Origin: a virus
Direction: 5' to 3' (one strand)
Length of the DNA stretch: 64,000 bases
IMG/VR virus record: IMGVR_UViG_3300042371_001161
Location: 32,001-96,000 of that record
Translations under genes and position numbers: made by a program
In this document: positions 9,158 through 63,500 of the stretch, in pieces
Position numbering within the stretch: position 1 is the stretch's first letter
Layout: each line of letters opens with the position of its first letter
Notes under the pieces: model-generated
Databases searched by the model: none
The model's input: only the letters and a program-made list of their open reading frames with translations
What the model was told of the DNA's origin: nothing

Positions 9158-10621
9158 TTAAACCACTGTTGAAGTGAGGTTAGACTTTACGATATCGATT
9201 TCAATTCTGTCACCAATGCTGCTGACACGGACACCGACTCTGGCTTTCACCAAACCATTTGCCAACTGTGAGGTTGGGTTGATTGAGGAATCGCACTTCA
9301 CGATGTATCCGTTATCTAGCTCACGGCCGTTGGCATCAAATGCTGGGTAAAGAGCACCGAGGTTGCGCATTACCGACAGGATTGACACAAGGCGTGACTC
9401 GATGTCAGCGAAAATGGTGTTTCTTCCATCGATTGAGCTGAACACCACATCTTCAAGCGACCGGTAGCACTCTGTAACGATTGAGTTAACAACATCCTGT
9501 TGCGTGATATAGCGGAAGTTGTCGTTATCGGAAGAGAGCGAACGGGCTCCATACACGCGAATCGTGTTTTGAATCACTCGAATTGCGTTTACGTTGCCTT
9601 CGTCAAGGTCGTCACCGACAACCTTGCTAATGTCAGTCTTGATGCCGGTCACAAACTTGGCCGCTGAAACAATTCCTGCGGCTGGAAGATGTGGTCCGGT
9701 CCCATTATGGGCAACGGCGCGCTTTGCAGCGATATATCCAACTGGTGGAATGAATCGTCCTATGCCAGGCACGCTAGTGGGAACTAAAACCCACGGATGG
9801 TACAGTGCCGCATGCTCTGAGCCTTCTCCCGTTTGAAGTGAGAGTGCCTTTTCCTTCATGGCGGTAGCAGTTGCGTCTTCTGTTCCAAACAAAATTGCGA
9901 TTCTGCTATTTGCGTTTGCGTGGTCGATGAGGGCTTCAGCCACAGTGTCGCCGCTATCCTCTGGGCAAACAACAGCGCCCGAGCCGAGAGCGTCATTGAA
10001 CAACGTAAGCTGAGCGATGTATTCAGCAGAAGTTACGGTGTCATTGTTGTCGTCGCCTGTTCCCAACGCCGTTTCTGCAAGTACTACCGGCTTCAGGGCC
10101 GTACCACCAGAAGCAACCGCTGCTGTCACATAGCGAGCAGCAACCGCACTTAGGTTAATTCGTCCGACTGCCTGTGATACTGTCGTTACGCTTCCAGTTG
10201 TGTATTTCAAAACGCCGTCGTAGTAAATATCAACTTTGAAGGTTGTTGCGGTTGGGTGCGTTACAGCAACTCCGACGTCCGCGCTCCAAGCGCCTGCGCC
10301 ATTTGCCGTCAACGTAATTGCGGCGGCGGAGGCTGGACCATTCAAAGTCAACGAGCCGACTGTTGCTGATGCACCAACGGCGCGCGCAATGAAAGCTCGC
10401 GTTCCACCTTCCTCGAAAAATGTCTCCACCGTTGGGTGGGTGTACGAGGACGTCAGAAATCCACCGAAAATGTCTTCGAAGTCACTAAGACTCTCGACAA
10501 GTACGGCTTCGTCCGATGGACCACGCTCTGTTTTGCCAACAATGAACAGCTGCGAAGATTCGCGCACCGTTGCCGTTGATGGACCAGTTCTAACTGAAGT
10601 TGAAATGACTACGCCAGGCAT
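9158..10621 (-). CDS. Contractile tail sheath protein
   Basis: 487 aa. Starts MPGVVI; contains VGKTERGP, FFEEGG, LYHPWV, PPVGYIAAKR, VNAIR, VYGARSLS and FRYI sheath-family motifs. Confidence 0.95.
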   Translation of the reverse strand: MPGVVISTSVRTGPSTATVRESSQLFIVGKTERGPSDEAVLVESLSDFEDIFGGFLTSSYTHPTVETFFEEGGTRAFIARAVGASATVGSLTLNGPASAAAITLTANGAGAWSADVGVAVTHPTATTFKVDIYYDGVLKYTTGSVTTVSQAVGRINLSAVAARYVTAAVASGGTALKPVVLAETALGTGDDNNDTVTSAEYIAQLTLFNDALGSGAVVCPEDSGDTVAEALIDHANANSRIAILFGTEDATATAMKEKALSLQTGEGSEHAALYHPWVLVPTSVPGIGRFIPPVGYIAAKRAVAHNGTGPHLPAAGIVSAAKFVTGIKTDISKVVGDDLDEGNVNAIRVIQNTIRVYGARSLSSDNDNFRYITQQDVVNSIVTECYRSLEDVVFSSIDGRNTIFADIESRLVSILSVMRNLGALYPAFDANGRELDNGYIVKCDSSINPTSQLANGLVKARVGVRVSSIGDRIEIDIVKSNLTSTVV

Positions 10622-24707: not shown

Positions 24708-27700
24708 ATGCCATCAGAATTGTTTGAATATAAGTCGTCTACGCTCGGGCACTCCGACTCCATCAATTTGGATGAAGCGCAGGGAATTGTCGAATGCTTC
24801 GTGGCTGGCATCGGCAACAAGGACTCTGTGGGCGACATCGTTGCCACTGGAGCATTCACGAAGAGCCTCCAACGCCGTAAGCCGCGCGTTGTCTGGGGAC
24901 ACAGTTGGAATGACCCCATTGGCAAGGTTCTAGAGATTTACGAAGTTCCGAACACGGATAATCGCCTTCCTATGAAAATGAAGATGGCCGGAATTGGTGG
25001 CCTGTTCGCTCGAGTTCAGTTCAATCTCAATTCAGAAAAAGGTCGCGAAGCATTCGCCATGGTCGCCTTCTTTGGCGAAGAGCAGGAGTGGTCGATTGGT
25101 TACAAGACACTTCGAGCTCAGTTTGACCAGAAATCCCAAGCAAATATCATTTATGAACTTGAGTTATATGAGGTATCTCCGGTTCTGCATGGCGCAAACC
25201 AGCTAACTGGGACTATTTCCGTTAAGTCCGAAGAGTTGTCCGGTGGAATCTTGATGTCCATGATGAACGAAGAAAACCCAATTGACAAGGCAGAGATAGA
25301 AAAGCAGCTTGCTGCAATTTTGGGCGCAAAAGTATCTTTAATGGAAGTTAACGACGAAGAGATTACGTTTGCGCGAAGAATGGACAACGGAGAAGTTGGC
25401 CGCTACAAGTGTGGATTCAGCAATAATCGCGGACATTATATGTTCGGTGCGCCGCGCCCCATTGTTGTAATGCCCGTGCGTAAGCCCATTGCTCCTGTAA
25501 GCGCAATGCCAATGGCGATGCCAGGTATGCCCCCAAATGAGCCACAAAGAATTGTTCGGCCTTCTCAAATGCCATCAATCCCAGTTGCTATTAAGCCAGG
25601 CGAAAACGGCAACCAGATAGTTCCTTTGCCACCAGTGCAATACGAAAACGATAATGGAAGTCGATTTGACCCAAGTAATCTTGACCAAGAAGAAGCTGAC
25701 TTAAGAGATGCTCTTTTAAAAATCGTAAAGCGTCACGGAAAGTTTAACGAAGATTCCGAGGGAGTATGGGCAGCGTATACCCCTGCTGCACAAAATGAAG
25801 TTGCCGGAATCGGCGTCAAGTGCTCCAACTGCGTCTTTTATCAGGGTGGAAGCGCCTGCAAGATAATCGACATGGAAGTAGAACCTGAAGGTAAGTGTCG
25901 TTTTGCCGTCATCCCAAAGGGCGTTGTCAAGGGAGCCGGCTCAAAAGCATATGAACTCGACGAGGAATTCGCCGAAGAAGATTACGTCGCTGACCTCGAG
26001 GTGAAATACCCCGGGGAATTAGCAGTTGCAGGACTTCGTGGAGTGGTCGGCAAGCGGAGAAAGAAGCGTCGGAGCTTTAAGTTCTTGAGTGAATTTGGTT
26101 CCAAGAGTGAAGATTTTGAAGACAAGCCATACTTACTTCCAGTTGTACCTCAGTTCGCGTTCCAAGTAAAACAAGTTCTTGACCCAATCTTTGATTACCA
26201 TGGTGTTGATTCTTACGTCGACACAAGCGGTATCTTCATGACTTCTGGCGTTACTTACGAATTGATTGAGGCAGTCGACAACGCTGTCGCAAATTTAAAA
26301 AAAAAATCCTTAAGTGAAAACAACCTAGAGTGGAAAGCAGCCGGGTATCGCCTCGGCAGAGCTATCAGCAGTCGATTAATTGACCGCCCAAACATCGGCG
26401 GAGGTCGTTCTCGCGGTCGTTTCTTCACATCTGTGGGTGCGGAAGACTTTGACCCATTCACTGCACGCGACTCCAACCTTAACGGCATCGTAGGAGAGGG
26501 ACTGTTCCTGCGTGGAGTTCCGCTTGCCGTAAATGACCCAACACCAGATGGTCCTGGCTCTATTCGTAACCCCAAGCCATCCCCCAGGCAGGTTGCGAAG
26601 CCGAATGCTGCAGCAATTTCTCGAGCGGAAATTCAAGTAGAGAAAATAACAAAACCTAAAGAGCGCCAGAAACTTTCCTCTGGAAGCGAGCTTGTAAATC
26701 TTCCGCGAATAGACGACCCGGATGTTGATTCGGCAGAAAAATATGGCGCAGCAGAGTCGCAGCGTGACGAGCTTCAAGGCGTTTTGGATGGAGCATCAGA
26801 TTCTGACCAAATAAAGAAGTTAAAGAAGGCCATTGCGGAAATCGACAAATACATGGAACGTGTCGAGAAGATGGCCGAAGGCGAAATGGCTGATACTGAA
26901 AAGCCAAAGAAAAAGCCCGTAAAGAAGCAGGTAGAAAAGACCAGTCAGGGTCTTTCAAGCGGCTACGGCAAGTATCTAAATAAGCCCGAGGCGAAGCGGA
27001 CGCAAGACGAGCGCCGCAAATATGACGGCCCCCTGTCCTCGCTTTCATCAGGAAAGTTGGCAGACAAGGCAGAGCTTCCCGAAGGCTCCAGCCAGCTTGA
27101 AGAGTTATACAAGGAAATGGCAAAAGATATTGTCGCTATTTTGCAGGAACTCGCCAACAATCCAGACGCATCAAAAAGATGGGAATTGCCATGGCGTAAT
27201 GCCGAGAATTATGCGCGGAATCCAACTAGTGACCGCATCTACCAAGGCATGAATCAGATGATTTTGTCCCTTACGGGCTCAGCTCGCGGCTACAAAATGA
27301 ATCGATGGGCCGGAGAGGGACAGTGGAAAAAGTTAGGCGGCAAAGTAAAACCGGGAGGCAGAAACAGGGGAGTGCAGGTTCTCGTTCCTCGTGAAGGACG
27401 AAGCTTTACTGATTCAACTGGCAAGCAAGTTGAAATGGGTCGCTACTATTCTGTTCAAACGGTATACAACGTCGATGAAATTGCAGGACTCCCAGAAAGT
27501 TTCTACGAGCTTGGTGATGTAGAAATAAACCAAGAGCAACGGTTGCAGGATATAGAAAATGTCATTAAGGAAATAGGTCCTTCTTTTGTCGAATCTCTAG
27601 GCTCGCAGGCTTTTTATCGCCCCGCCACCGACAAAATTCATATGCCTGCATTTGAACAGTTCAAGGATGCTTTGGCTTTTTATGGAACTGCAATGCATGA

Positions 27701-30700
27701 GACAATCCACTGGACATCGCATCCGAGTCGACTCGACAGAAAATTGGGGAAAACGTTTGGAGACGAAGATTACGCCTTTGAAGAACTTATTGCAGAAATA
27801 GGCTCCGCGTTTGCAATGGGCGCAATGGGCCTTGAACCAACGATACAAGAAAACCATTTGCTTTACCTAAGTAGCTGGATAAAGAAACTACAAAAAGACC
27901 CGCTAGCAATTCACCGGGCCATTCTGCAGGCGCAGAAAGCAAATGACTACATAATGGACCGCTCTGCCACAATGCGCAAGCTCGCAGGTATCCCTGACGG
28001 CGAACGCAAGGGCAAGGACTCGGGCTGGTTTGAAATACCAATGATTGCTGGATATCCGGGTGGAGAAAAAATAAAGTCACCAACAACAATCACGGGACCA
28101 ATGGAAGACCTGCTTGACATGGAGCAGTACGACGAACTTGTTCCGGATGCTCGAAATCTAAGTATCGAAGAGCGCGAAATGCGCTCCTTCCAGATTCATC
28201 CAAATGCTATACGCAGGAACAAAGACGGCGTAGTAATTACGCCATCTGGAGCTTTGGCAAGCGGCAAAAAGGCTGGCCCAATCAAGAGCAGGAAGGGCGC
28301 TCCCGACGTAGAGCGCACCGATGAAGATATTTCCATGAAGTTTGCGTTCGGCTTAAGTAATGAGCCAACAAACGAGCAGCGAGACATTATGGATGTTGTT
28401 ATGCGTCTTGTTCGTGAGAAAAACCCACAAATCATGTCTATTCTTGCTGGTGCAGGAACAGGAAAAACTACAACCCTGAAGAGTATTGCATGGGCGTTGG
28501 CTCGTGAATTCAACCTATGGCCAGAAGGCGACGAGCGTCGCAAAGAACAACTCAAGTATTTAGCAGATAGATATAAGATTGATTTTAGCAAGATGTCTTC
28601 AGAAGAAATTGCGTTAGCAGTAGCAAAACTTGCAAAAGACAACCCCATGGGCAATATGTATTACACGGTTTTTAACACAAAAAACCAGCATGAAGCCGAG
28701 AAAGAATTCCCTAAAAATACGGGTATAGCCACGACCGACAAGCTTTTTCTTTGGTCTCTAATGCTAGGTGGTGGCGACAAAAGATTTGGTCCTGCGTTCC
28801 GTAGAAAAATGGCAGTCCAGAAACTTAAAGCAGATAACTCAGCCGCCGGAAGCGGTAAAGATAATCCAAAATTTATAAGTAAAGAAAAAACTCCAGATGA
28901 ACCAAGGAGAATTGGTTCCGATTTTGTTCGCGAACATTTTGATGGCACGATTGAAACATTTGTAGGAGAGGAGCCTGGTTACAGGACCCTTGGTTGGCAG
29001 AGACTTGATGATGCCGTGGACTGGATTAAATTCCTTGGGATAGACAAATGGCCCGACCAGCAAACCAGAAGAAGAGACCGAGTACAGAAGGACTCCAAGG
29101 GCAGAACAGTCCGTGACGCCAACGGCAAAGAAGTTCGTGAACAATACGACGAGTCAATATTTATTCTCCCTGATGGAAGAGGAACAACACAAGTAACCAC
29201 TGAAGAAATGGCCGATATTCTCAGTAACGCTCTCGGAAGATGGGAAATATCAAAAGAAGAAAAAGCAGCAGCATGGATGTTTACGCCGTCGGCATATCGT
29301 GCAGAGGGCCGCACCACCCCTAAAGGCCAGGGAAAAGACATTCATGTCGTGGACACGGTCCTCACAGAGGACCAAGTACCCAAATTGTGGGTTGAGGCCC
29401 TCCAGCAAGCGATAGATGCAATGATGGACGGCAACAGCAACATGATTCCGCGAAGGGACTCTGTTCAAAAACTATGGCTACTTTCGAATCCGGACTTAAG
29501 AACCGACCCTGGCCTCATAACGCATTCTGAAAATCAAACAAGAAACAAAGTGCCGATACCGAATACATACAAAGTTGGAGACAAGTATGTTGACGAGAAC
29601 GGTGAAGAATGGATTGTGGCGGGAACCTCGCGAGATGGTTCAAGTAGCAAAGTAAAAGCAAGACTTGCCAAGCGGGTTGCCACTGTCGAGAATCCACTCA
29701 GCGCGTTCATGGTAGACGAGTCTCAAGACTCTAATGAAATTTTGGAAACCGTATTAGAAAACAATAGAAAAAATCTTCCAATAATTTTAGTGGGTGATGA
29801 TAGACAGGCTGTTTATGCTTTCCGCGATGCGAAGAACATACTTGATTCCCTTGATGCTGAATATTCGCTATCAATAACCGAATCATTTAGGTATGGACCA
29901 GTCGTCGCTCACTTAACCAACATGGCACTTGGTCGACAGAACCTCTACCTGAGAGGACAGGAAGTTCCGCAGTCAATGGACTGGAAGCATGTGAAGGGTC
30001 AGGCACAAGAGGTCATAAACATGTTGTTTGACCCAGTGCTTGCAAAAAAAGACAGAAAAGGCGCAAATCAAGTTCCAGAAATCAACGACAAAACACGCGC
30101 CCTGATTATCGACGATATTGAAAAAAGATTTTCAACACCAGATAAAAAAATTGAGATATCTGACAAGACCAGAGTTGCTCAGGATGCAATTCTAAAACAA
30201 CTACGCGACGAGCTCTACGATGAAAGAGAAGGAAAAATAGTCGACTTTGTTGAACTCGCCAATCAAGGCATCTTCCCAGACGCCATTTTAACAGGGACTA
30301 ATGCGGAAATTATAGACTGGGCCCTCAAGTTCATTGACCTAGTCATCAATAGGCCGAACGCCGAAAAAGACGAAAATGGATTCCCAAAAATACCAGAAGT
30401 AGTTATTCCAGCCAAAAAACATGAAGATTTGTTGGCATTTACTATTCAACTTGACTACATCATGAAAAGTCCAGAACAGCAAGCGGCATACGAAAAAATA
30501 TTTGGGGGACGTCCCCCTGAATCCCAGTGGCTTGGGCCAGTCTGGACACAGGGAAGACTTCAACAATTACTTAAACAATCCAGGTCCCAACAGCTAACCA
30601 CCGCATACAGACTCATAACGACAGCCCCACCAGGACAAGCGCCTCTTGGAACTCGCGGAATGCTCACCCTTCTTCGGGGTGAAAATATTGTTGAAGAAGT

Positions 30701-33371
30701 AAACGGCAAACAAAAAATTCGCACCGTTCCTGCGGTGCTATTGCCAGAAAGAAAAACTCAACAACTAAACAATTTTACTGGCGATGACTCAGACCCATCA
30801 AAAGGTGTCAGGGCAGTAGTTATGGGAATATCTCGCGGCACCAAAGCGGCAGAAGCAGAACAGGCGAGTGATAGTCAGCGTAAAAAAATAATTATAATTC
30901 CTCAACCAACTGGAGCCACCGATGGAAGGTCGGCTGTTTATGCACAGCTCGAAATTAATGGTGGTAGCAGTACGAAACCAGGAAAGCCAACCGGCAAAAT
31001 AATCATTACTGGAGATGGCGTTGATAGTAATCGGCCAAAAATCAACGATGATGGTTCTGAGTCAAGAAACAAGGCACCCAATCAAAGGGTTGGTAACGGT
31101 AGATTCAGAAGGAATCTCGAGAAAATAATTCAAAGATATGGACTTCAAGACAAGGTTAAGCCCAAAGAAGAGGCAGAGGGGGCCATGAAGGGAGGTTCTA
31201 AGCGTCGCCTGTATGACGGTTGGGTGATTGAAGGAGAAACTCTACAAGAAAGTTCGGACATATTGGAACTTCTCGGTCAGGCTCTTCGTGACGAAGCAAA
31301 GGAAGTTGGCGGAGATGTTCAAATAACCACGATGGCACTGAGCAAGGGGCGGGAATTCGACTATCTCGTTATGGCGGACGACATTGACGACCCTGATGAC
31401 TTATTGCCTCAAAGTACACCGAAGGGTGAGGCTTCCATAGGATGGATGCAGGCAACGAATCTCATACATGTAGGCCTTTCACGTGCTAAAAAAATGATAG
31501 ACCCAGGAGCAAAGACCTTTGCCTTTTATTTGCACGACCAGAAAACGAAGCCAGTTCGCGAAGCGATGGCTCAAGCCGTAAAAGATGGACACATCCCAGA
31601 AGGGCTCGACAGAGGAGCATTTGGCGATGAGGGCGGAATACCGCTGCCGGACTTCTATCAAAAACTAAACGCCATGCGCGTCGAAGATATCAATTTCGAC
31701 AACCTCCCTGCAAGGGGCGGCGCAAAACCAGACCCATCGACAGGCCTGTCAAGTGGAGCGGGTAGTGGCCCCAAAAATACACCAACTCGTCGCGACGGCA
31801 GACTCAATAGAAGAGGGTCGTCAGGCGGCAGTAGAATTTACGATGGCAGCGGAAGCGCACAAGAAATTGCTGGCATTCGCTTTAGGGGTGACTTAAAGTC
31901 GCCAAAAGAGCAAGCCAAGTTGAATTTCTCAATGAACGTGTGGAAGCGTTTCCGTGACGTCGGAATAGCAATAGATGTGGACGACGATGCATCAGAAACC
32001 GAAGCACGCAAATCTAAAAACGCTGCAACAATAAAGTCAGTTGGTGCAGAGATGAAGAAGCGCCAAAACCTCGTTCGTGTCGGCAGAGTGGGCGACAATA
32101 ACGTGAATGACGCTCCCTCGGCGCTGACATGGATGCTGTCCGTGGACAAACTTGCTGAAACTCTAAGAGTTCCGACCGAATTTGTTTCCGCCAATAGGGA
32201 CGGGAAGAGTTCGCTACAGTGGACTCAGACCCGCCCGGTTACACGCAAAGAGCTTGCAACACTTCTTGGCTTGAATGGTCCAGATACGGCAGCCCTGGAA
32301 GCGCCGGACGCCGGCATCAACCATGATGCTGTCAGACTGCTTATTGCCGAACTCGGCAAGCAACCAGAGCTGAGCGCATGGCGATACTTTTCCCCAGTTA
32401 GCGCCGAAGAAGTAGCAAAGATTATCCCGCCATCACCCAGTGGTGATGTTGAAGGATTCTCAAAGATAGACCTTGCTTTGGAAAATGTTGGTCGCGCAAA
32501 CATGCGTGACAGGTTCATAATCGAGACCTTCGGCAAGGACGCGTTCCCTCATTGGTTCGACCCGGAAGAGGGCGAGTCCATAACGCCAGACGAATACAGC
32601 AAGCTTGGCGAAATTAGCGCAGTGTCTAAATTCCGCGCAACTGGTCGCTTTGACCCAGAGGACCCGACCAAGGGCGACTCAGAGGCAGAATACGACCTCT
32701 ACGGAGAGCTTATTGATGGCGTTCTGCCTAGTGCGGAACCAGATGGTGAGATAATTAGTGGAGACAAAACAAGCAGAGAAGATTTTGAATTAGAGCAGCT
32801 TCTGAAATATCTAGGAATCGATAGACAAGAATGGAAGACGACCCTTAAAGAACGAATGTCTGCTGCTTTCGGAATGGATGCCGTCGGAGCATGGGACGAA
32901 TGGAAGAAAGACGGAATACCAACGGCCACGGTCGCTCACATGATTAGAACTGGGTTAATACCTAACGCCGCTTCAGTCTGGAAAGACGCGTCCACGGGCG
33001 AAAGATTTGACAACGAACTGAAGAAATCAAAATACGCCGTGTATGAAGCATTAAACGAATTTATTGACAAGAGTTTTCCTGATAGCAAGCTCAATAGCCA
33101 AGCCAGTCGAAACAAGATAACTGGAAGAACTGACATGGGTGTTGCGTTAAGAGATGCTGCGACGGCAAAAGGCTCGGCATGGTCTCCGAAAAAAGGAAAC
33201 GAAGCAAGATTCTCTGACTCAGAATTGCAATCAATAGTTGACAGATTTAATGAAGTGTTCGGAACCAATCACACCATCGATGACATATTTAGCGCCGAAC
33301 AACTGAGAACTGCCGCAGAAAGAATTGAGTCTGGTGAAACCTTGTCTGGCAAAAAGAGAAAAGTAAGTTAG
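24708..33371 (+). CDS. Giant fusion: HK97-type prohead protease (S78) + HiPIP-like Cys motif + ArdC-N/MPTase zincin + SF1 (UvrD-like) helicase + unknown C-terminal domain
   Basis: Protease: GNKDSVGDIV...VVWGHSWNDPIGK...EWSIGY...LYEVSPVLHGAN. ArdC: WELPW..RNPTSDRIYQGMNQ..YYSVQTVYNVDEI. Zincin: QAFYRPATDKIHMP..HETIHWT..YAFEELIAEIGSAF. Helicase motifs: AGAGTGKTT, VDESQD, VGDDRQAVYAFR, TESFRYGP, SKGREFD, HVGLSRAKK. Confidence 0.88.
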   Translation: MPSELFEYKSSTLGHSDSINLDEAQGIVECFVAGIGNKDSVGDIVATGAFTKSLQRRKPRVVWGHSWNDPIGKVLEIYEVPNTDNRLPMKMKMAGIGGLFARVQFNLNSEKGREAFAMVAFFGEEQEWSIGYKTLRAQFDQKSQANIIYELELYEVSPVLHGANQLTGTISVKSEELSGGILMSMMNEENPIDKAEIEKQLAAILGAKVSLMEVNDEEITFARRMDNGEVGRYKCGFSNNRGHYMFGAPRPIVVMPVRKPIAPVSAMPMAMPGMPPNEPQRIVRPSQMPSIPVAIKPGENGNQIVPLPPVQYENDNGSRFDPSNLDQEEADLRDALLKIVKRHGKFNEDSEGVWAAYTPAAQNEVAGIGVKCSNCVFYQGGSACKIIDMEVEPEGKCRFAVIPKGVVKGAGSKAYELDEEFAEEDYVADLEVKYPGELAVAGLRGVVGKRRKKRRSFKFLSEFGSKSEDFEDKPYLLPVVPQFAFQVKQVLDPIFDYHGVDSYVDTSGIFMTSGVTYELIEAVDNAVANLKKKSLSENNLEWKAAGYRLGRAISSRLIDRPNIGGGRSRGRFFTSVGAEDFDPFTARDSNLNGIVGEGLFLRGVPLAVNDPTPDGPGSIRNPKPSPRQVAKPNAAAISRAEIQVEKITKPKERQKLSSGSELVNLPRIDDPDVDSAEKYGAAESQRDELQGVLDGASDSDQIKKLKKAIAEIDKYMERVEKMAEGEMADTEKPKKKPVKKQVEKTSQGLSSGYGKYLNKPEAKRTQDERRKYDGPLSSLSSGKLADKAELPEGSSQLEELYKEMAKDIVAILQELANNPDASKRWELPWRNAENYARNPTSDRIYQGMNQMILSLTGSARGYKMNRWAGEGQWKKLGGKVKPGGRNRGVQVLVPREGRSFTDSTGKQVEMGRYYSVQTVYNVDEIAGLPESFYELGDVEINQEQRLQDIENVIKEIGPSFVESLGSQAFYRPATDKIHMPAFEQFKDALAFYGTAMHETIHWTSHPSRLDRKLGKTFGDEDYAFEELIAEIGSAFAMGAMGLEPTIQENHLLYLSSWIKKLQKDPLAIHRAILQAQKANDYIMDRSATMRKLAGIPDGERKGKDSGWFEIPMIAGYPGGEKIKSPTTITGPMEDLLDMEQYDELVPDARNLSIEEREMRSFQIHPNAIRRNKDGVVITPSGALASGKKAGPIKSRKGAPDVERTDEDISMKFAFGLSNEPTNEQRDIMDVVMRLVREKNPQIMSILAGAGTGKTTTLKSIAWALAREFNLWPEGDERRKEQLKYLADRYKIDFSKMSSEEIALAVAKLAKDNPMGNMYYTVFNTKNQHEAEKEFPKNTGIATTDKLFLWSLMLGGGDKRFGPAFRRKMAVQKLKADNSAAGSGKDNPKFISKEKTPDEPRRIGSDFVREHFDGTIETFVGEEPGYRTLGWQRLDDAVDWIKFLGIDKWPDQQTRRRDRVQKDSKGRTVRDANGKEVREQYDESIFILPDGRGTTQVTTEEMADILSNALGRWEISKEEKAAAWMFTPSAYRAEGRTTPKGQGKDIHVVDTVLTEDQVPKLWVEALQQAIDAMMDGNSNMIPRRDSVQKLWLLSNPDLRTDPGLITHSENQTRNKVPIPNTYKVGDKYVDENGEEWIVAGTSRDGSSSKVKARLAKRVATVENPLSAFMVDESQDSNEILETVLENNRKNLPIILVGDDRQAVYAFRDAKNILDSLDAEYSLSITESFRYGPVVAHLTNMALGRQNLYLRGQEVPQSMDWKHVKGQAQEVINMLFDPVLAKKDRKGANQVPEINDKTRALIIDDIEKRFSTPDKKIEISDKTRVAQDAILKQLRDELYDEREGKIVDFVELANQGIFPDAILTGTNAEIIDWALKFIDLVINRPNAEKDENGFPKIPEVVIPAKKHEDLLAFTIQLDYIMKSPEQQAAYEKIFGGRPPESQWLGPVWTQGRLQQLLKQSRSQQLTTAYRLITTAPPGQAPLGTRGMLTLLRGENIVEEVNGKQKIRTVPAVLLPERKTQQLNNFTGDDSDPSKGVRAVVMGISRGTKAAEAEQASDSQRKKIIIIPQPTGATDGRSAVYAQLEINGGSSTKPGKPTGKIIITGDGVDSNRPKINDDGSESRNKAPNQRVGNGRFRRNLEKIIQRYGLQDKVKPKEEAEGAMKGGSKRRLYDGWVIEGETLQESSDILELLGQALRDEAKEVGGDVQITTMALSKGREFDYLVMADDIDDPDDLLPQSTPKGEASIGWMQATNLIHVGLSRAKKMIDPGAKTFAFYLHDQKTKPVREAMAQAVKDGHIPEGLDRGAFGDEGGIPLPDFYQKLNAMRVEDINFDNLPARGGAKPDPSTGLSSGAGSGPKNTPTRRDGRLNRRGSSGGSRIYDGSGSAQEIAGIRFRGDLKSPKEQAKLNFSMNVWKRFRDVGIAIDVDDDASETEARKSKNAATIKSVGAEMKKRQNLVRVGRVGDNNVNDAPSALTWMLSVDKLAETLRVPTEFVSANRDGKSSLQWTQTRPVTRKELATLLGLNGPDTAALEAPDAGINHDAVRLLIAELGKQPELSAWRYFSPVSAEEVAKIIPPSPSGDVEGFSKIDLALENVGRANMRDRFIIETFGKDAFPHWFDPEEGESITPDEYSKLGEISAVSKFRATGRFDPEDPTKGDSEAEYDLYGELIDGVLPSAEPDGEIISGDKTSREDFELEQLLKYLGIDRQEWKTTLKERMSAAFGMDAVGAWDEWKKDGIPTATVAHMIRTGLIPNAASVWKDASTGERFDNELKKSKYAVYEALNEFIDKSFPDSKLNSQASRNKITGRTDMGVALRDAATAKGSAWSPKKGNEARFSDSELQSIVDRFNEVFGTNHTIDDIFSAEQLRTAAERIESGETLSGKKRKVS
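26294..26306 (+). repeat. TTT-A10 homopolymer / in-phase slippery sequence
   Basis: AAT TTA AAA AAA AAA TCC. This is the longest homopolymer I noticed in the window. Confidence 0.8.
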
Positions 33372-33501: not shown

Positions 33502-35244
33502 ATGAAATACGACGAAAAAGTTACGCTAAGCATTGACGGTGGCGGCAATGTTCTTAAGTGCGCAAAAGGCGCTGTCGCAGATTGCGGCTTCGTCAAGGGC
33601 GCAGAACTATGTGCCAAGTGCGGAGCTATGCCCGTAGAAATGAAGATGGTGCCCGCTGTTGCTGAACCAGAAGCAGACGAGGAGATGGATGAGGAAGAGT
33701 TGTTGAATCCCACCTCTGCTTCCGTCAAGAAAAAAGGCAATAATAAAAAGCCTGGACATGCACTTCTTGAGATGGCCGACGAAGGTGACGAACCAGACAT
33801 GACGGAGGAAGAAATGGCCGCCGTTATGCCGAAGAAGAAGGGCATGGTCGCGCCCATGGAGCTCGAGGAAGAAGAAGTCGAAGAAGACGAAAAGATGATG
33901 CATGCAATGCCTAAGAAGAAAAAAGGCATGGGCATGGCCGTCCCAGCAATGGATGACGAAGAAGACGTCATGGAAGAAGACGAAGAAGACGAAGAAGACG
34001 AAGAATACAAGCAGATGATGCGAATGCGTCGCGCCGGCCGAAAGAACATGGAAGGCGCTATGCCAGTCATGGATGGCGAAGAAGACGACGAGGAGCTCGA
34101 GGAAGAAGAAGTCGAAGAAGAGCTCGAAGAGGACGAAGAAGTAAAGATGAATGGTCGTCGACACGTCAAGGGTCGCCGAAAGGGCATGGAAGGCGCCATG
34201 CCAGATATGGATGCCGAAGAAGAAGACGAAGAGCTCGAAGAAGACGAAGATGAAGAAGAGGAAGATGAAGAGTACGCAGAAATGGGTGCCAAGTCTTTCT
34301 CCCCGCTTCATACTGAGTGGGAAGAGATTCGTCGCGCTCGTATTGGGTCCATGGGACTGAAGGTCGCTGATATTGGTGCGACAGGCTATGTGTGCGCTAT
34401 TGAGCGCAAGGCCTATGGTGGCTCTTCGCCAGTTTGCGATGACTGCCCAGGAGGTTGCGTTGCCGAAAAAGGCATGCCAGGGATTCTTCATGTTGAAGGT
34501 CTCGCTGAGAAAATGTTTGATGGCGTAGTCGTTGATTCTGGTTATTCGCCAGATGCCGATATGTTCGTTGTGGATGTACAGGTAAAAGATGGTTCCGTAA
34601 ACGAAGTTTTTGTCGATGGTACCTCTGCGGAAATTCTTGGTTTCCACAAACTTGACATGACGGAATTCGATAAGAAATCAGACATCGGTAGTTTCAGACT
34701 AATTGACTTTACGGAAGCTGCTGAAATTGCTGTCAAATCAATTGATGGAACAGTAGTAGCGATTGAGCCCGATATATTTGAGGGCTTTGATTCGTATGCC
34801 GTTGAAATAGAAGGCTTTGATGGCAAGTCATATGACGTATTCGTGGCATTGGATGGAGAAGTCCTCGGCTACGACAAGTATGAATCCGACGAGATTGAAG
34901 GAATTGAAGCCGAAGCGGCAGAAATTGCGATGAAAAATGCGTTCTCGGAAGAGAGGCGCATGGACTTGGCAAAAGATGGCATGGCCATGGAAGACGGGTC
35001 TTACCCAATTGTCTCTGAAGGCGATTTGCGTAATGCAATTCAAGCATTTGGTCGAGCAAAAGACAAAGAGGCAACCAAGAAGCACATTATGAAACGTGCT
35101 CGCGCCCTCAAGTTAGAGAGCTTGATTCCAGCAAACTGGATAGCCGGTGGAGAAGAAAAAAGCAGCAGTAATTTAAGTGACGCAGAATTCATGGCGTCTC
35201 TTGTCGAGTTTCAGCTGCTCGAAGACTCCGTAGACGACAACTAA
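33502..35244 (+). CDS. Acidic scaffold-like protein with Cys clusters, two PepSY-like domains and C-terminal DUF6582-like domain
   Basis: Glu/Asp/Met-rich repeats. AAEIAVKSIDGTVVAIEPD...YAVEIEGFDGKSYDVFVALDGEVL is PepSY-like. MEDGSYPIVSEGDLRNAIQAFGRAKD...HIMKRARAL..IPANW is DUF6582-like (from memory of the family). Confidence 0.7.
   Translation: MKYDEKVTLSIDGGGNVLKCAKGAVADCGFVKGAELCAKCGAMPVEMKMVPAVAEPEADEEMDEEELLNPTSASVKKKGNNKKPGHALLEMADEGDEPDMTEEEMAAVMPKKKGMVAPMELEEEEVEEDEKMMHAMPKKKKGMGMAVPAMDDEEDVMEEDEEDEEDEEYKQMMRMRRAGRKNMEGAMPVMDGEEDDEELEEEEVEEELEEDEEVKMNGRRHVKGRRKGMEGAMPDMDAEEEDEELEEDEDEEEEDEEYAEMGAKSFSPLHTEWEEIRRARIGSMGLKVADIGATGYVCAIERKAYGGSSPVCDDCPGGCVAEKGMPGILHVEGLAEKMFDGVVVDSGYSPDADMFVVDVQVKDGSVNEVFVDGTSAEILGFHKLDMTEFDKKSDIGSFRLIDFTEAAEIAVKSIDGTVVAIEPDIFEGFDSYAVEIEGFDGKSYDVFVALDGEVLGYDKYESDEIEGIEAEAAEIAMKNAFSEERRMDLAKDGMAMEDGSYPIVSEGDLRNAIQAFGRAKDKEATKKHIMKRARALKLESLIPANWIAGGEEKSSSNLSDAEFMASLVEFQLLEDSVDDN
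33780..34275 (+). repeat. Degenerate coding repeats: (M/A)MPKKKGM / MEGAMPxMD followed by poly-Glu/Asp
   Basis: Repeated gagctcgaggaagaagaagtcgaagaag and ggcatggaaggcgc(c/t)atgcca units. Confidence 0.8.
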
Positions 35245-35257
35245 GAGGGGGCGCCAC

Positions 35258-38200
35258 GTGGCGAATACCCCAGCAATGCGGGAAAGAGTAATAGTTTCAG
35301 CACAACTCATGGTGCCGTCTTCGTGCTGCGGCGACTTCAATGAAAAGGCAGTTCTTTTCAGGCAGTCGATTAACTCGTCTCTGTCAACTGGAAAACTTCA
35401 GGCCGAGCTTGTCACAAAAACTATTACAGAAGGTTTTGGCATACGCGTAAAAGCCGATGTCGATACCGACGGGAAAAAACGAGAATTCACCGGAGACAGT
35501 CGACCTGGTGTCGAATCCAATGAATTTGGATATAGATGGGAAACGGGAGGAAAGTGGGAACCCGGTTCGAGGCTTGTCTTGAGCCCTCCTTTTCAATCTC
35601 GCGAGGGAATGGGCACAGAGCCCAACTTTGGCTGGTTGCCGCCGGAAGATAAGTCAACGACAACATTTGAAGAAATGCTTCGGGCCTATAGGGAAAAGCC
35701 AAAAATAAAGTTAAGCAAATACAAGGTAAATCCAAGGACAGATGAGGTCATACCTGATTCCGAAAAAATCATTGACCCATTCGGAATAGCGGCAGGGCTT
35801 AGCTATGAAGAAAAACAGCAAGCCTTACGTAAAAATGAAAAAAACACCCTAGAAGAAAAAAGATTACCGGGTCGCAGTCTTGAATCCAGAGTTCCAGGAG
35901 GCTCGCTCCTTTCGCGAGCTGCAGCCGTGTTTGGCATCCTTCGTGACGAAAACAATAAATTTAGATGTCCTCCAGGAACGCCTGCAGCAAATCAATTTAC
36001 AGACGCCACTGGAGCAAACTGTTTTGGATTCAGTGCATCGAAATTCTCTCGCTTTGCAGCGCGACAGGCAGCCAAGCTCACTGCCCAAGGTGAATATACG
36101 GGATTGCGCCAAAACGCCGCAGACTTCTTCAGATGGATACATGGCCCCAGGTCGAAAAGAGACCCTGCTCTTGCGGAAAAGTGCGCCTACTGGGGAATCA
36201 AAATACCGGAATGGCGAGACATCGCCGTCCCAGAGAATTTACGTTTATTTAAAAACGGAGCCATTCGTGGTCAGGATGATATTGCTCGTCAAAAAGCCGA
36301 AGTTGTGCGCATGTACGACGCATTGGGGATTGACGCCGACGACCCAGATGCTCCGGTTAAGGCGCTTAAAAAACTAAAAGAAATGCATTCGCAAACAGGC
36401 GGCACTGCTGGCTGGGATGTGCAAGTTCTTGATGTTTCCGGAAAAGGGGACGAGCTATTAACAGATGTAGAAATAAAAGAATTTGTAAAAACAAGACTCT
36501 CATCTACTCCTGGCTGGAACAGGCTCTCTAGTAAAGAACAAGAAAGACTATTGAAGTCTGATTTTGAGCGATACAAGACCACTCAACGAGCAATGCTTGA
36601 AACCTTACTTGACCAATTCATGACAGACCCAGGCAGCATGCGTGGGGTTGGTCGAATTGAATTCAACTTCATGACAGATGATGAAGCTGGTACGTCCTTC
36701 TATAGAACGCAAAATGGGATGAAAACGGCAATACACATCAATATGGGGATGATTAGTGCCAATCAAGAAACCATGCTTCCGAACATGGGCGGAGACGAGC
36801 GTTTAGCAATATCTGCTATTGGTGCTAGAAGCGAAGCAGAAGGACGACTTGCGGTTGCTGATTTCATGGTAAATGCAGACCATACGGCCAGAGGCATGGC
36901 CGGCCTCCTTGATGGCGTGTATGGATTTTCAAGTCATATCATGCTCCATGAAATAGCTCACCACAAACAATCTCAAGTATTCCTGGACAAAATACAGAAA
37001 GAAATTACAGAAAAAGGTTTCATTTCCGTTGCGGTCAGAAATAAAAAAGGAGCTGTTGTTGGCGAGCGTGAAGTTAAGAACATCAATAGCCTGACAGGCT
37101 CCGACCTTATGTCAATAATGACTGGCATTGCTGACTCAATCAATATTGAATCGCTAAATGACGCAATGACCAGAATCCAGGCAATTGCTCCATTGGCTGG
37201 GGCATACCCGCGTGATGGATACGCTGTAGGTTCGGAAGTATGGGCGCTGGAAGCATCTGCCGAGATTTGGGCACTACGCGAACGCGGAATTATCTTTGGC
37301 GACGATGTTGACGCTGCTCTTGAGTGGATGGACAACATGTCCTTCTCTGTGGCGGCAAGAGACCGAACGGCAAGTGATGACACAGATGGTCAGAGAAAAT
37401 TAGATGACGTATTTGATATTCCCGCGGACCCCGTTGACCCAGGTTCAGTATCAGATGAAGACATCGACGCGCGAGCTACCGCCGCAATCCGTGAAGAACT
37501 TAAGCGATTCAAAACAGAGTTCTCCAAATTTTCAGAAGAAGAAATGTTTGAAGAGGCAGCAATCATTGGCTCTCAGCGTGACGCCAGTGCCAGACGGCTG
37601 GAATTATTAGAGGTAGAAGAGATAGAAGACCCCTTTTTCCCGCTTACCACATCAGGAAAAATCGTTCGAGACATACTCAAGGCTGATGCAGTGCGGGAAG
37701 CCAAGAGAGAATTTGATTTTCACGCAAAACGATACGACGAGGCGTCAAAAATTTGGCGCAAGAAGTACGGTATAGGCGCTAGTGGTGAAAGAAAAAGATT
37801 TGATGATGAGGTCTACTCGATACGTAAGCGAGAAGGTCTGCTTGATTCAAAAGAAATGGCCGATATTGCTCGCAGGGCCGACCTCGATGATTTGCGCGAC
37901 AGAGTTAAATCAATGCCCGAAAAGAAAACTATCAGCCTCTTGGTTGACGACAAGGTAAGACTCTCGAAACTCGACTCTTCGTCTGATGAATTTAAGAAAT
38001 TGGCCGACGAGATTGAGGTCATTAGAGAACAGTACGTAGAAAATATGAAGTCCGCAGGAGATACGCGGACTAAAGCACAAATCAAAAAAGAACTTGATAA
38101 AAAAGTCAATGACATCATAAATCCACCATCGAAGCCTAAGAAGAAATTCAAGAGCGCTGATGAAGCTCGAAAGCACGGCGCAAAAGAGCGCGCCCGAGTA

Positions 38201-46979: not shown

Positions 46980-47668
46980 AAATTGGTTTCATAAAAGACG
47001 TATTTAGTGGAATGCCGCACGTTATGGCATCGATGGAAAATGAAGTTATTCACGTAAAATCGATTACTGAATTTGGTAAATCAATTATTGAAGATTTTGA
47101 TTTTGATGAAAAAAACATTGGTGCAAACGTGCCTGTTGGTTGCGTTTTTACTGGATTTTTTGCTGACAAAAATAATCTCCAAGTGCCAGAAAAAGAAAAC
47201 CAGGTTAAGCAAGAAAATTTTACATATGCCAGAAAATCAATAAATGACATATCGCATCGAAAAATTAATGCGATTGGACTAGAAATGAATAAGTTCACAA
47301 ACAGCACTAATAAAATTAATGCTATTGCATTCAAAGCTGAATCATTCAAGAATTCTGTGCGCAGGTCTAACTTCATCCGAAGAATACATAGCGGGAAGAT
47401 AATTTTTAACGAAAAAATGGGGCGGATTGAACTAAATCCAAAGTTTGCCTTTAGCAGTATCGAGAAAGAAGTTCTTAATTCTTCTTTCGGTAAGAGTTTC
47501 ATTAGAAAATCAGCCGATAAAGAAATAATGCAAAGTAGCGATAAGCGTAGAGTCGCACGCAGGGCAAAGGTCCTTCTTGGGCTAGTAGGCGGAGAACGTT
47601 CTCCTGAAAAACAACAAATTTCAGAACGAATAAACAAGGCTCGTAGGCAGGTCAAAAATGGCAAGTAA
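46976..47668 (+). CDS. Hypothetical protein in head cluster
   Basis: 230 aa, overlapping both neighbouring genes. Confidence 0.6.
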   Translation: MKIGFIKDVFSGMPHVMASMENEVIHVKSITEFGKSIIEDFDFDEKNIGANVPVGCVFTGFFADKNNLQVPEKENQVKQENFTYARKSINDISHRKINAIGLEMNKFTNSTNKINAIAFKAESFKNSVRRSNFIRRIHSGKIIFNEKMGRIELNPKFAFSSIEKEVLNSSFGKSFIRKSADKEIMQSSDKRRVARRAKVLLGLVGGERSPEKQQISERINKARRQVKNGK

Positions 47669-48320
47669 AAAAGATTTGGTAAAAAAAGCCGATGCTCTAC
47701 GTCTAGCCAAAGATATTGGCTGTTCTGGTGCCCACAAGGACCGCAAAGGAAATTGGATACCTTGTGAATCAATAGAGGAACTAGAAAGAATATCCAATAC
47801 TGCCGAAACATCAAAATGGCGAACCGTGGTTCCTGGTTCAAAATCATCAAAGGAACGTACCAAGGGGAAAAATAAACGCCGGCCTGACGGCTGGGAAAAC
47901 CTAAGAGAAAAGCCAATTCGTGGCATTGAGTCACTCTCTGGCGTGGGGCTCGTTTCAGGCTCTTCATTTAATTCAAAATCACTTAACTGCTGTGGCACGA
48001 AAGGGACCGGACCTGAATTCGTACGCGACAATGATGTCGATGTGTTCTTGGATGCAGACTCAGCGAGGGCTCGTTCCCGTCAAATCGGATGCATAGGTAT
48101 TAGTAGGCGAATAAGCAAGTCTGGGCGCACGGTTTGGATGCCATGTACCAATATGAGCGATTATTCAAACAGGACTGGTTCTACTGATTTAGGGCGCAGA
48201 AACATGCGGAATCGTCGCGAAGAAGAGACGCGACGTGCAGTAAGAACAGTTCTAAGAGAGACTTCTAAGCCAACTGTAGCGAGAAAAAGTTCGCTAGCAA
48301 AAGAACTACGTATTAAATAA
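47658..48320 (+). CDS. Basic protein with two DUF3721-like (GCxG...W(I/M)PC) repeats
   Basis: IGCSGAHKDRKGNWIPC and IGCIGISRRISKSGRTVWMPC. Confidence 0.65.
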   Translation: MASKKDLVKKADALRLAKDIGCSGAHKDRKGNWIPCESIEELERISNTAETSKWRTVVPGSKSSKERTKGKNKRRPDGWENLREKPIRGIESLSGVGLVSGSSFNSKSLNCCGTKGTGPEFVRDNDVDVFLDADSARARSRQIGCIGISRRISKSGRTVWMPCTNMSDYSNRTGSTDLGRRNMRNRREEETRRAVRTVLRETSKPTVARKSSLAKELRIK

Positions 48321-60518: not shown

Positions 60519-63500
60519 ATGTCTGTAGATAACAATGAGTTCCACATCCCCTTTGAGGAAACGCGTCGCGGTGTAGATTCAAACACCGAAGAAAAGGCCG
60601 CCCTCGGTCGGCTGGGGCGCTATTTGGGCTCCAGAGCCACAAACAGACCCACTATCGGCCAGAGGCGAAGAGGCAGGGGCGGTGGTCGAGGGGTCGAAAT
60701 ACCTACCGGCGGCAAGCCAGGCACACGAAACCCAACGGGCTCGCGAAGGGACGTCGATGGAGACGGCTGGGCTGACGAAGGAACCAAGAAGCCGGTATGG
60801 GTGGGGATGGGGAATACGGAGCCCGCATCAAAACCAAAGCCTCAAGCGCAAAGACAAACAGCGAAAAGAACCGAGACAGAAGTTGCCAAGAAGCTATCCA
60901 GTGGATTGGAGCAACTGTCGCCGTTAGAGCGTTACGACTATGGTCCAGTGGTTGCTGCCAAAAAAATCAAAAGCAAAGACACCGAATACAGGCTAGTCAT
61001 TAGGAATGACTTTGATATTGGCATCTATCTTGAATCAGATTTCAACAAAGCACGCGACGTTTTAGTCGAGAGATTCAACAAACTTGGAGCGAACCCCTTC
61101 AACGATAAGCCATCTCCATTGGGTCCGGAGGATATCGACGACAGGGATGTTCTGAGGTTCATGCTCGACAACGATAAGACCATAAAAACCATGTCGGCCA
61201 TGCAAGTATGGTCGCCCGGTGGCGGCAGTCGAACTGAAGTTTTTCAAATCAACACAAGACCCAAACACCAAAGACGTGGTCTCGCAGCAGAGATGTTCAA
61301 TACACATAGGGAAACTTTCCCTGAGTTGGACCTTCAGCACAGTGATGCGTTGAGCGAGGATGGTCGAGCATTTTCAAAAGCAGTACCGGCTACGTCCAAC
61401 ATGGAATCCCCAGATAGGCCGTCCAGTCTTTCGTCTGGAAAAAAATATCAAGAGCTTGTCGATGCTCAGCCAGAATTAACCGAAGAAAAGTTGCGTCAGA
61501 TAGACGAGCTTAATGAATTATTAAGAAGCGATTTACTTGATAGCGCCGACTCGTATAGTGAAGATACTGATGTATTTGGCACAGGAATAGATATTTTAAA
61601 TGATTCACCAGAGCGTGCAGCACAAAGAAAAAGAGTGCATGATTTATTACGTGAAATTTTTAGTGGAGAAATTGAGTTAGAGGAAGACATCATCGTCACC
61701 GCTACTAATGGCGAAAAAATAAATTTAGGAAAAACTGTTGTTGTTGATGTTGCTGAATCTTTCGAAGCCCTTGGCTGGCAGGTGGAGATAGACGAAGTAA
61801 GTGAAGAAGATATACAACTAGTCCAAGACCAAACTTTTGAACCATTTCTTTCAGCCGATTCAACCGGCATTGGCCTAGCCGCAAGATTTCAATTCAAACT
61901 AACCCCCACTGCCGATGCCGCAGAACGACTAACTGCAGCCGGGGTGCCAGATGAAATGATTTGGGATGAGATGATGTCGGTTGGGCCCGGCACCCAAGGA
62001 GAAGTGCAATTTGGTCGCTCCGCAAGAATGCTTTCGTATTTTCCTGGAGATAAACCAACGGCGACGATGCAGCATGAGACTTTCTTTCTGAATTCGGAGT
62101 CTCAAGGACACGGCATAGGAAGCGCATTCAATGCAAGAAATGAAAAAATATACGAAGCTATCGGTCAATTAAAAATATTTGCAGCGGGGACGTCCAATAC
62201 CGAAGAATCCATTGGGGCGACGCACTGGCCTAGAAATGGATTCACGTGGGCCGGGGAACCAGGGAAACAAACTTTTCTTGGGACAATCGCAGAAGCCCTC
62301 GATGATACTGAACAGAACTGGTTTAGTCCGGAAGAGAAATCCCGGATATCGTCATTAATACGGAAAAATCCTGATACGGGCTTATTTGAAACTGACTCAA
62401 CCCCAGAAAATCTTCTCAAATTCCAACGAGCAACGGAATTATTCAAAGAAAAAGAATTGTCGATTCTTTACGTGCGTGAAGTATCCAAGAGAAAGACTCC
62501 AGCCGGCGCACTTTCCAGTGGGCGCATCGGAACCGTAAAAACAGAACCAGTCGAGATGATGCGTTCAACGGAGTTTCCGAAACTAGGTACTAAATTAATT
62601 GATTCTGGCGGTACGCCCGACCCCACCTCTAGTCAAAAACAATATATGGAATTCCCGGTTTACGAAATTGACGGGAAAAAATTTGCGTTTGGCAATACTG
62701 ACTTGGGCCGATTCCAGCCTGAGTTCAATACCGAAGATATAGAGATAGTCCCTCTAAATCCTTACGCAATTGTCGGACTGCCCAAAACCTCCACCGAAGG
62801 ACAAGAGTGGGCGTTGAAAATGTTTCATGCGATTCAAGCAGTTTCTCTTCTTGACGACATTGAGGCTGGGCGTGTTGGCAATAGAAAAGTTGGCCTAGTC
62901 GCAGCTTTAACTTATGCTGCGAAGCGGGGAGATAAGCCTGCCCTAGAAGAACTGGAACGTTTGGCAAAAATTGGTGAGGAGCTTTTAGTAAACAACCGAC
63001 GAGATTTCGTATCGGCTGCGAAGGTGTACAACGAACAGATGTGGGACGTTGACGGCACCTATTGGGACGACACGCCAAATATGCAAGTCGTTCTTGGCCC
63101 GACAAGAACCAATGAATACGGCGACACCGTCCGCACAACAAGAGCACTAGGCATCGATGACATGTTTCTTGTTCACCAAACATCATATAAGCCTCAGTAT
63201 GATGACGACGGCAATATTATTCTTAAACCAACCGGGGATTTTATCCCAATTGACCCCAATACTGGCGAGCAATTATTGGACCCCATATCAGGCAAGCCAG
63301 TCGCCATGCCAGACCGCGATTCCATACATATGACCCTTAATCACATGGTCAAGGGTCATATGTGGAGAAATGAGCCCACGGAATCAACAAGCGTTATCAT
63401 CGTTCCACTAAGAGACGTACTTGACGCTAACCCCGGCTCCTTGGACAACCTTTTCGTAGTTGACACATTCCTCACACCAAAGCCAGGTGAAGGACTTGTC

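Follow-up and report, generated by a model that had tools for sequence, protein, structure and literature searches.

In polyvalent proteins of phages and conjugative elements, a single chain unites 2 to 15 unrelated effector-type domains (PMC5512222); among them are multi-domain phage proteins with peptidase, ADP-ribosyltransferase (ART) and ParB domains that are encoded beside virion genes and predicted to be injected (Iyer et al. 2017; PMC5512222). ART folds of the C3/VIP2 type are also carried in the head and ejected as T4 Alt and the MuF/SPP1 gp7-type minor capsid proteins (PMC5512222), and Salmonella SopF, the archetype of DUF3626 (PMC6682159), is an ART with an I-Y-E triad (PMC10333799). 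Here we describe giant 2, a viral gene that resembles these systems. It lies in a 64,000-nucleotide (nt) stretch of DNA (the window; positions 32,001 to 96,000 of IMG/VR virus record IMGVR_UViG_3300042371_001161, which has 119,748 bases and an estimated completeness of 71%). The gene (P0001; 35258..43807, + strand, as are all its features below) starts with GTG, is uninterrupted and encodes 2849 amino acids (aa). Like polyvalent proteins, giant 2 combines metallopeptidase motifs with ART-type and ParB-type domains, lies beside virion genes and has variable cargo; several unrelated effector-type domains were found in its single open reading frame (ORF), in a neighbourhood of virion genes. Delivery along with the DNA and processing into units are predicted for polyvalent proteins, and the same is proposed here for giant 2. 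With a probability of roughly 0.68, giant 2 is a capsid-loaded, injected polyvalent effector polyprotein. Its folds, conserved residues, discontinuous domain, synteny and fast evolution are established below, and the fold assignments, with the exception of the zincin and a SopF match of middling score, are firmer than this reading of the whole protein. A previous sequence-only reading had taken giant 2 for a string of conflict-type enzyme folds; the ORF and every motif that it named (RCP at aa 236, HEIAHH at aa 564, EASAE at aa 665 and the LSSG copies) were recovered, in the order of modules that it gave.

The C-terminal domain was modelled over aa 2490-2849, without the domain's first strand (predicted local distance difference test, pLDDT, 70.8). 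It comprises a core at aa 2515-2787 (42800..43618), in which Y2544, R2601, Y2604 and E2690 are invariant, and a helical tail at aa 2788-2849 (43619..43804), delimited by the secondary structure of the model, that gave only generic helical matches. SopF (DUF3626, PF12294; PDB 7DN8/7DN9) ranked first of 350,542 chains in Foldseek, at an E value of 0.54, which is not significant, and a template modelling (TM) score of 0.24-0.29. An independent aligner run against 48,161 representative PDB chains also placed SopF first (7dn9_A/7dn8_A; Z 6.4, which is middling; root-mean-square deviation, rmsd, 4.3; 165 residues aligned) and as the sole match across the core. The ARTs DarT and CteC ranked lower, on the same range of the domain. 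In addition, one homologue, P0041, has a Pfam-verified DUF3626 domain (E 2.4e-9) in exactly the C-terminal slot, to which the giant 2 family profile aligned in three colinear blocks. The invariance of Y2604 and E2690 is what an I/H-Y-E type ART would show; H2547 and H1345 are conserved as well (positions assigned with no residue-level superposition on SopF). The domain is widespread, with at least 262 clusters at 50% identity; Pfam searches of ten shorter proteins that carry it found nothing, so that neither MuF nor any other known type of carrier could be named among them.

Taken with the models, these data make the C-terminal domain a probable ADP-ribosyltransferase. The best-surviving alternative leaves the rest of our reading intact and takes the domain for an unrelated alpha/beta domain that looks like SopF only because the arrangement is a common one. 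The middling Z score, the Foldseek E and TM values, and a model of limited confidence made without the first strand all speak for it, as does the lack of any PF12294 match at E<=10 in 13 family members and of any in P0054, P0055 and P0057. A search of the domain profile against the PDB found nothing. However, the first rank of SopF in two independent searches, the sole coverage of the core, the ARTs next on the same range and the DUF3626 domain of P0041 in the same slot argue against it, and we consider it unlikely, although the strongest of the alternatives. The DUF3626-like C-terminus predicted from the letters of the DNA is supported, at a middling score, by its core match to SopF, and its span (nt 42800-43390) corresponds to the alpha/beta core; it did not hold as a complete domain, since the first strand lies at aa ~1345-1375, nor as a member of PF12294.

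This first strand belongs to an N-element at aa 1285-1380 (39110..39397) that consists of an H-x-G-F-D-R-R-V-R-V-R strand and a helix, with H1345, D1349, R1351 and R1353 invariant. Among the 144 relatives listed, the N-element (here aa ~1285-1400) mostly precedes the C-terminal domain directly, and ParB modules stand between the two only in the clade of giant 2. The N-element strand had low confidence in a model of aa 975-1960, that is, without the C-terminal core. When the N-element and the core were predicted as a complex, the interaction prediction score from aligned errors (ipSAE) reached 0.80, 0.80 and 0.81, compared with 0.00 for the best of three controls; the pLDDT of the partner was 73 and at least 77% of the contacts were common between runs. 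Of 80 solved complexes, 58 attained this mark, as did 2 of 110 mismatched pairs; these counts apply only roughly here, since our own alignments went into the prediction. In the predicted complex, a strand made of aa 1351-1354 lies between aa 2544-2548 and aa 2591-2594. Because the N-element adjoins the C-terminal domain in relatives and because of the complex prediction, we read the two as one fold: as modelled, the SopF-like domain is discontinuous, its strand lying ~1100 residues upstream of its core, and a 1074-aa cassette of two ParB modules (aa 1404-2477), bordered by the second and third LSSG motifs, interrupts it. A resemblance noted by eye between the N-element and the beginning of the P0041 DUF3626 domain was rejected, as it had no hidden Markov model (HMM) support. 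Giant 2 differs from SopF in that its domain is interrupted by the cassette and has no sequence-level membership in DUF3626; furthermore, SopF is an ARF-activated type III effector acting on the V-ATPase, whereas giant 2 belongs to a phage whose host is bacterial.

The cassette holds two modules of about 500 aa each, module 1 at aa 1440-1955 (39575..41122) and module 2 at aa 1964-2460 (41147..42637). They are 27% identical (E 2e-62), and from their sequences they are a true tandem duplication in which module 2 is the diverged copy. Module 1 consists of an N-subdomain and a ParB/sulfiredoxin (Srx) core at aa 1739-1865 (nt 40472-40852). The core matched sulfiredoxin (Z 7.1), SerK (Z 6.8, 24% identity), SbnI (6.5) and KorB (6.2) (VIA), and viral ParB/Srx proteins were among the matches of module 1. 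The motif DGHHRW, found at aa 1823 (nt 40724) and aa 2330 (nt 42245), is invariant in 19 modules. The N-subdomain, ~300 aa before the core, has invariant C1567, C1578, R1586 and MPQ (1589-1591), and module 2 keeps the Cys pair, MPQ and DGHHRW. No match was listed for the N-subdomain (aa ~1440-1735), although ART matches fill the lists of the 986-residue model used for this search and its fold may still be known. Against the PDB, the family profile matched 1vk1 (E 4.8e-4) and a free serine kinase (E 8.5e-4), within a range of 5e-4 to 1e-3; these matches are due to the DGHHRW motif that they have in common. Curated thresholds were not reached for ParBc_2, ParB_N, ddrB-ParB or SerK: module 1 scored 19.4 bits against NCBIfam SerK (E 4.6e-4; cut-off 380), and ParBc_2 gave 15.3 bits (cut-off 23.6) and was matched by 4 of the 19 members. 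Module 2 matched the ParB-like PHROG 620 at E 0.0013. Altogether, these results support a ParB/Srx core in each module, in module 2 by homology to module 1, and bear out the two ParB/Srx modules proposed from sequence by fold (sulfiredoxin), by PDB profile (1vk1) and by tandem arrangement. The nearest members of the ParB/sulfiredoxin superfamily are the free serine kinases SerK/SbnI and ParBc_2. Giant 2 is like SerK in the fold match and in an identical DGHHRW active-site motif, but unlike SerK, SbnI and ParBc_2 its core sits in a 500-aa module with an N-subdomain and scores far below their thresholds. The module also differs from the DdrB-like ParB of polyvalent proteins.

A second ART fold was found at aa 975-1172 (38180..38773). 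The AlphaFold model of aa 975-1960 (986 residues, 23 alignment rows) had a mean pLDDT of 75 and of about 80 over this part, and the top Foldseek matches of its first 200 residues were all R-S-E ADP-ribosyltransferases. Structural comparison (VIA) matched aa 975-1172 to 8za7_B (Z 11.8, rmsd 2.7, 151 residues aligned), to VIP2 and C3larvin (Z 10.7) and to iota-like toxins (Z 10-11). The catalytic Arg of strand 1 was absent from all 11 aligned homologues, which have S/T/Q-G-x instead of STS and E/D-Q-K/R/N instead of ExE, the positions being placed by secondary structure and motif order, not by residue-level superposition. Since the catalytic residues are missing in every homologue, this segment is a dead ART fold of the C3/VIP2/Alt type, a pseudo-enzyme throughout the family. 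The ART-like segment of the sequence-only reading was thus right in fold and wrong as an enzyme, and the span assigned to it (nt 38390-38770) covers only the C-terminal two thirds of the larger fold. A PDB profile search with this region found nothing. Viral models similar to it comprised viral ARTs, T4-type Alt and minor capsid or head morphogenesis proteins (E about 0.01-0.02). Given the latter resemblance, the pseudo-ART fold may well serve giant 2 for structure or docking, and by analogy docking in the manner of MuF/gp7 is a reasonable guess. The earlier statement that giant 2 lacks an obvious structural domain needs to be qualified by this fold. The likeness to T4 Alt and the MuF/gp7-type proteins lies in the fold: unlike T4 Alt, that of giant 2 has no Arg, STS or ExE, and binding to the portal would be an analogy only.

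Further analyses placed giant 2 in a conserved head module. Upstream of it lie TerL (minus strand), the portal gene, a 2887-aa protein (giant 1) and a 580-aa ORF, and downstream five small ORFs are followed by the major capsid gene. Giant 1 begins with an S78 prohead protease, followed by ArdC-N, MPTase-PolyVal and a UvrD-type helicase; BLAST found no segment common to the two giants. Giant 2 starts 14 nt past the stop codon of the 580-aa ORF and is preceded, 9 nt upstream, by a GAGGGGG Shine-Dalgarno sequence. The order portal, protease, 580-aa ORF, giant 2, five ORFs and capsid protein was kept in ~45 related loci, all drawn from IMG/VR, which confirms the location among protease/scaffold and capsid genes described before. 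In the same loci giant 2 is 30-64% identical while the capsid protein is 73-86% identical; since synteny is kept and identity is far below that of the capsid protein, giant 2 has a fixed position and a fast-evolving sequence. Its 56 giant homologues in metagenomes reach down to 22% identity. The reading of giant 2 as an internal head or ejection protein fits this conserved synteny and fast evolution.

The N-terminal region (aa 1-400; 35258..36457) gave a second link to the head module. Its core motif, RCPxG-x6-FTD-x5-C (aa 236-255, nt 35963-36022), lies in the best-conserved stretch of the whole family (aa ~201-260), with the K234-F256 block near-invariant in 27 homologues. The same motif, following the same GGSL, occurs at aa 125-146 of a 673-aa head-module ORF (44958-46979, +; pairwise E 0.007) and in 41 of 42 homologues of that ORF in related phages. 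The N-terminal region of giant 2 keeps this position in all relatives. One further copy was seen in another locus (L043). No Pfam family matched aa 1-400 and an Atlas search gave no usable match. From its distribution, the RCPxG block is a candidate head-targeting or docking tag, a role that we propose as an inference from sequence.

These observations bear on a reading in which giant 2 is a non-packaged, cytoplasmic late protein that acts in the producing cell, for instance on DNA and proteins of host or phage while virions are assembled, and owes its place in the head cluster to co-expression only. ParB-type and ART enzymes also work inside infected cells (T4 ModA/ModB; PMC5512222), the virion association of giant 2 is a prediction and several ORFs of the cluster have no known role. 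However, the position between portal/protease and capsid is strictly conserved in the loci compared, the N-terminal tag is common to giant 2 and another head-module protein, the pseudo-ART module is similar to minor capsid and head morphogenesis proteins and in the sister giant the prohead protease itself is part of the chain, so that we regard this explanation as improbable.

The remaining parts of giant 2 precede the pseudo-ART fold. A candidate zincin-type metallopeptidase occupies aa 400-720 (36455..37417), with HEIAH at nt 36947-36961 and E665/E669 at nt 37250-37264. Both an HExxH motif and a conserved downstream third ligand, as in zincins, were found, and 27 homologues with no more than 22-69% identity all keep H564, E565, H568, E665 and E669. 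In contrast, this region had no similarity in Pfam or PDB profile searches, and its profile showed no likeness to the MPTase-PolyVal (PF18818) domain of giant 1 (hhalign probability 0.1). An Atlas search returned a lead only ('WD_0702 putative metalloprotease' at 0.91). The zincin proposed earlier is therefore likely on its motifs, with no family behind it, and the structure prediction and Foldseek check suggested at that time recovered the ART, ParB/Srx and SopF-like folds (the last at Z 6.4 only) and left the zincin to its motifs. A charged helical region follows at aa 720-974 (37415..38179), delimited by composition and without a family match; K, R, D and E make up 40-50% of aa 701-1000.

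Relatives of giant 2 differ in what they carry. P0053 carries an RNase_T exonuclease (Pfam), and in P0046 and P0054 one domain resembles the C-terminal part of the type III effectors XopAD/skwp (NCBIfam, E 1e-23 to 4e-30). Inspection by eye alone pointed to a GNAT-like stretch in P0048 and to a second, small ParB-like domain (DGHNRV) in P0046, P0048, P0051 and P0053. These relatives suggest a swappable cargo slot. The weakest alternative, a mainly structural internal head protein (an inner body or DNA-organising scaffold) whose enzyme folds are relics with no effector activity after ejection, draws on the family-wide loss of the catalytic residues of one ART fold, the long charged helical region and the very large size of the protein, and is highly improbable given that HExxH/E, DGHHRW (twice), Y2604/E2690 and H1345/D1349/R1351 are invariant over deep divergence, that cargo is swapped between relatives, which is typical of effectors rather than scaffolds, and that giant 2 evolves much faster than the capsid protein.

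The modules are separated by linkers with LSSG motifs, which have pLDDT values below 50 in the aa 975-1960 model. The first LSSG (aa 1264; 39047-39058) lies in a disordered linker (38915..39100; pLDDT 30-33 over aa 1220-1281), the second (aa 1403; 39464..39475; pLDDT below 50) forms the upstream border of the ParB cassette and the third (aa 2477; 42686..42697) its downstream border. Homologues have 3-7 copies of [LF]SSG each compared with about 0.1 expected from shuffles, a 20-70-fold enrichment, and distant homologues have GGMRS or DGFAS where LSSG stood. Elsewhere in the window, [LF]SSG was found in a tape-measure-like ORF (2958-7817, -; 2 copies), in the protease-fused giant (24708-33371, +; 4 copies) and in a third large ORF, cut off by the window edge (60519-63998, +; 4 copies). 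As a sequence pattern, LSSG would fit a protease site code. One idea, suggested by the distribution of the motif, is that all LSSG-bearing proteins may be ejected and cut by a co-ejected peptidase.

Several points weigh against an injected polyprotein. None of the domains of giant 2 reaches a Pfam, PHROG or NCBIfam threshold: the whole protein gave only noise in Pfam, DUF3626 and PolyVal families included, only one family of unknown function and the weak ParB-like match in PHROGs, and nothing useful in a PDB sequence search. The SopF match is middling and the family lacks PF12294 members, the putative zincin is counted from motif conservation, and with one enzyme-type fold dead the others could be too. 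Cleavage at LSSG is a prediction, and it would be unsafe to ascribe it to the prohead protease, because LSSG also occurs in the tape-measure-like ORF, outside the head. Finally, no cultured relative that carries giant 2 emerged from a tblastn search of 50,697 cultured phage records.

With these points counted in, an injected effector polyprotein is still the reading that we prefer. Giant 2 would be made together with the head proteins and would enter the prohead by means of its N-terminal RCPxG tag, its dead ART-fold domain or both. Cuts at LSSG would probably give four pieces (aa 1-1264, 1265-1403, 1404-2477 and 2478-2849), the first with the tag, zincin, helical region and pseudo-ART and the third with the two ParB modules, and the protein would leave the head along with the DNA. 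After entry into the new host, the SopF-like domain, made of the aa ~1345-1375 strand and the C-terminal core, may ADP-ribosylate a host target using NAD+, the two ParB/Srx modules may bind or hydrolyse nucleotides or nick DNA, and the zincin may process the polyprotein or attack a host protein. Packaging, cleavage, ejection and every enzymatic activity in this scheme are steps that we infer only.

A more speculative and rather doubtful extension takes the split ART for a proteolysis-gated enzyme. In the uncut protein, the ParB cassette would loop out of the SopF-like domain, between its first strand and its core; the two flanking LSSG sites would be cut in the head or after ejection, freeing the ParB unit and leaving the ART pieces to remain or come together as a non-covalent active enzyme. 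If true, a single cleavage event would both free one effector and arm another, and a lineage-specific site code (LSSG, GGMRS, DGFAS) would co-evolve with its protease.

The virus itself is a myovirus, as judged from a tail sheath gene at 9158-10621, and its capsid protein is nearest those of Gordonia and Brevibacterium phages (47-48% identity), which makes an actinobacterial host plausible; the virus is uncultured, has a genome of roughly 150-170 kb and probably infects actinobacteria. The cultured actinophage myovirus ChisanaKitsune of Gordonia (MZ820089.1 10104-39492, locus L088; capsid protein 47.8% identical) has separate genes annotated as RNA ligase, VIP2-like ADP-ribosyltransferase toxin and 970-aa HNH endonuclease between portal and capsid, so that in this phage, too, enzyme genes occupy the slot; the pseudo-ART profile showed no likeness to this VIP2-like ART. 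The 580-aa ORF (33502-35244, +), which always directly precedes giant 2, has no Pfam or PHROG match and is far better conserved than giant 2 (50-87% identity among relatives); it could be a scaffold, chaperone or loading factor. Just upstream of the capsid gene, a 220-aa ORF (47658-48320, +) has two DUF3721 copies (PF12518, E 9e-11).

Compared with polyvalent proteins, giant 2 stands apart in that MPTase-PolyVal (PF18818), ART-PolyVal and ddrB-ParB were not detected in it by Pfam, in that its live-looking ART is SopF-like and discontinuous, and in that its ART folds are of clades not found in polyvalent proteins by Iyer et al. 2017. Most likely, the strategy is one known for phages, for which giant 2 employs protein families that none of the databases tried could name. 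The opening minutes of an infection are decided by injected phage effectors, of which few have been described beyond model phages; the giant 2 family was missed by every curated domain library tried. It offers a probable SopF-type ADP-ribosyltransferase in phages, a ParB/Srx module that unites a serine-kinase-like active-site motif with a partner subdomain, a clean case of a domain nested in a domain at motif-marked borders, and a short conserved tag with a possible role in directing proteins to the capsid.

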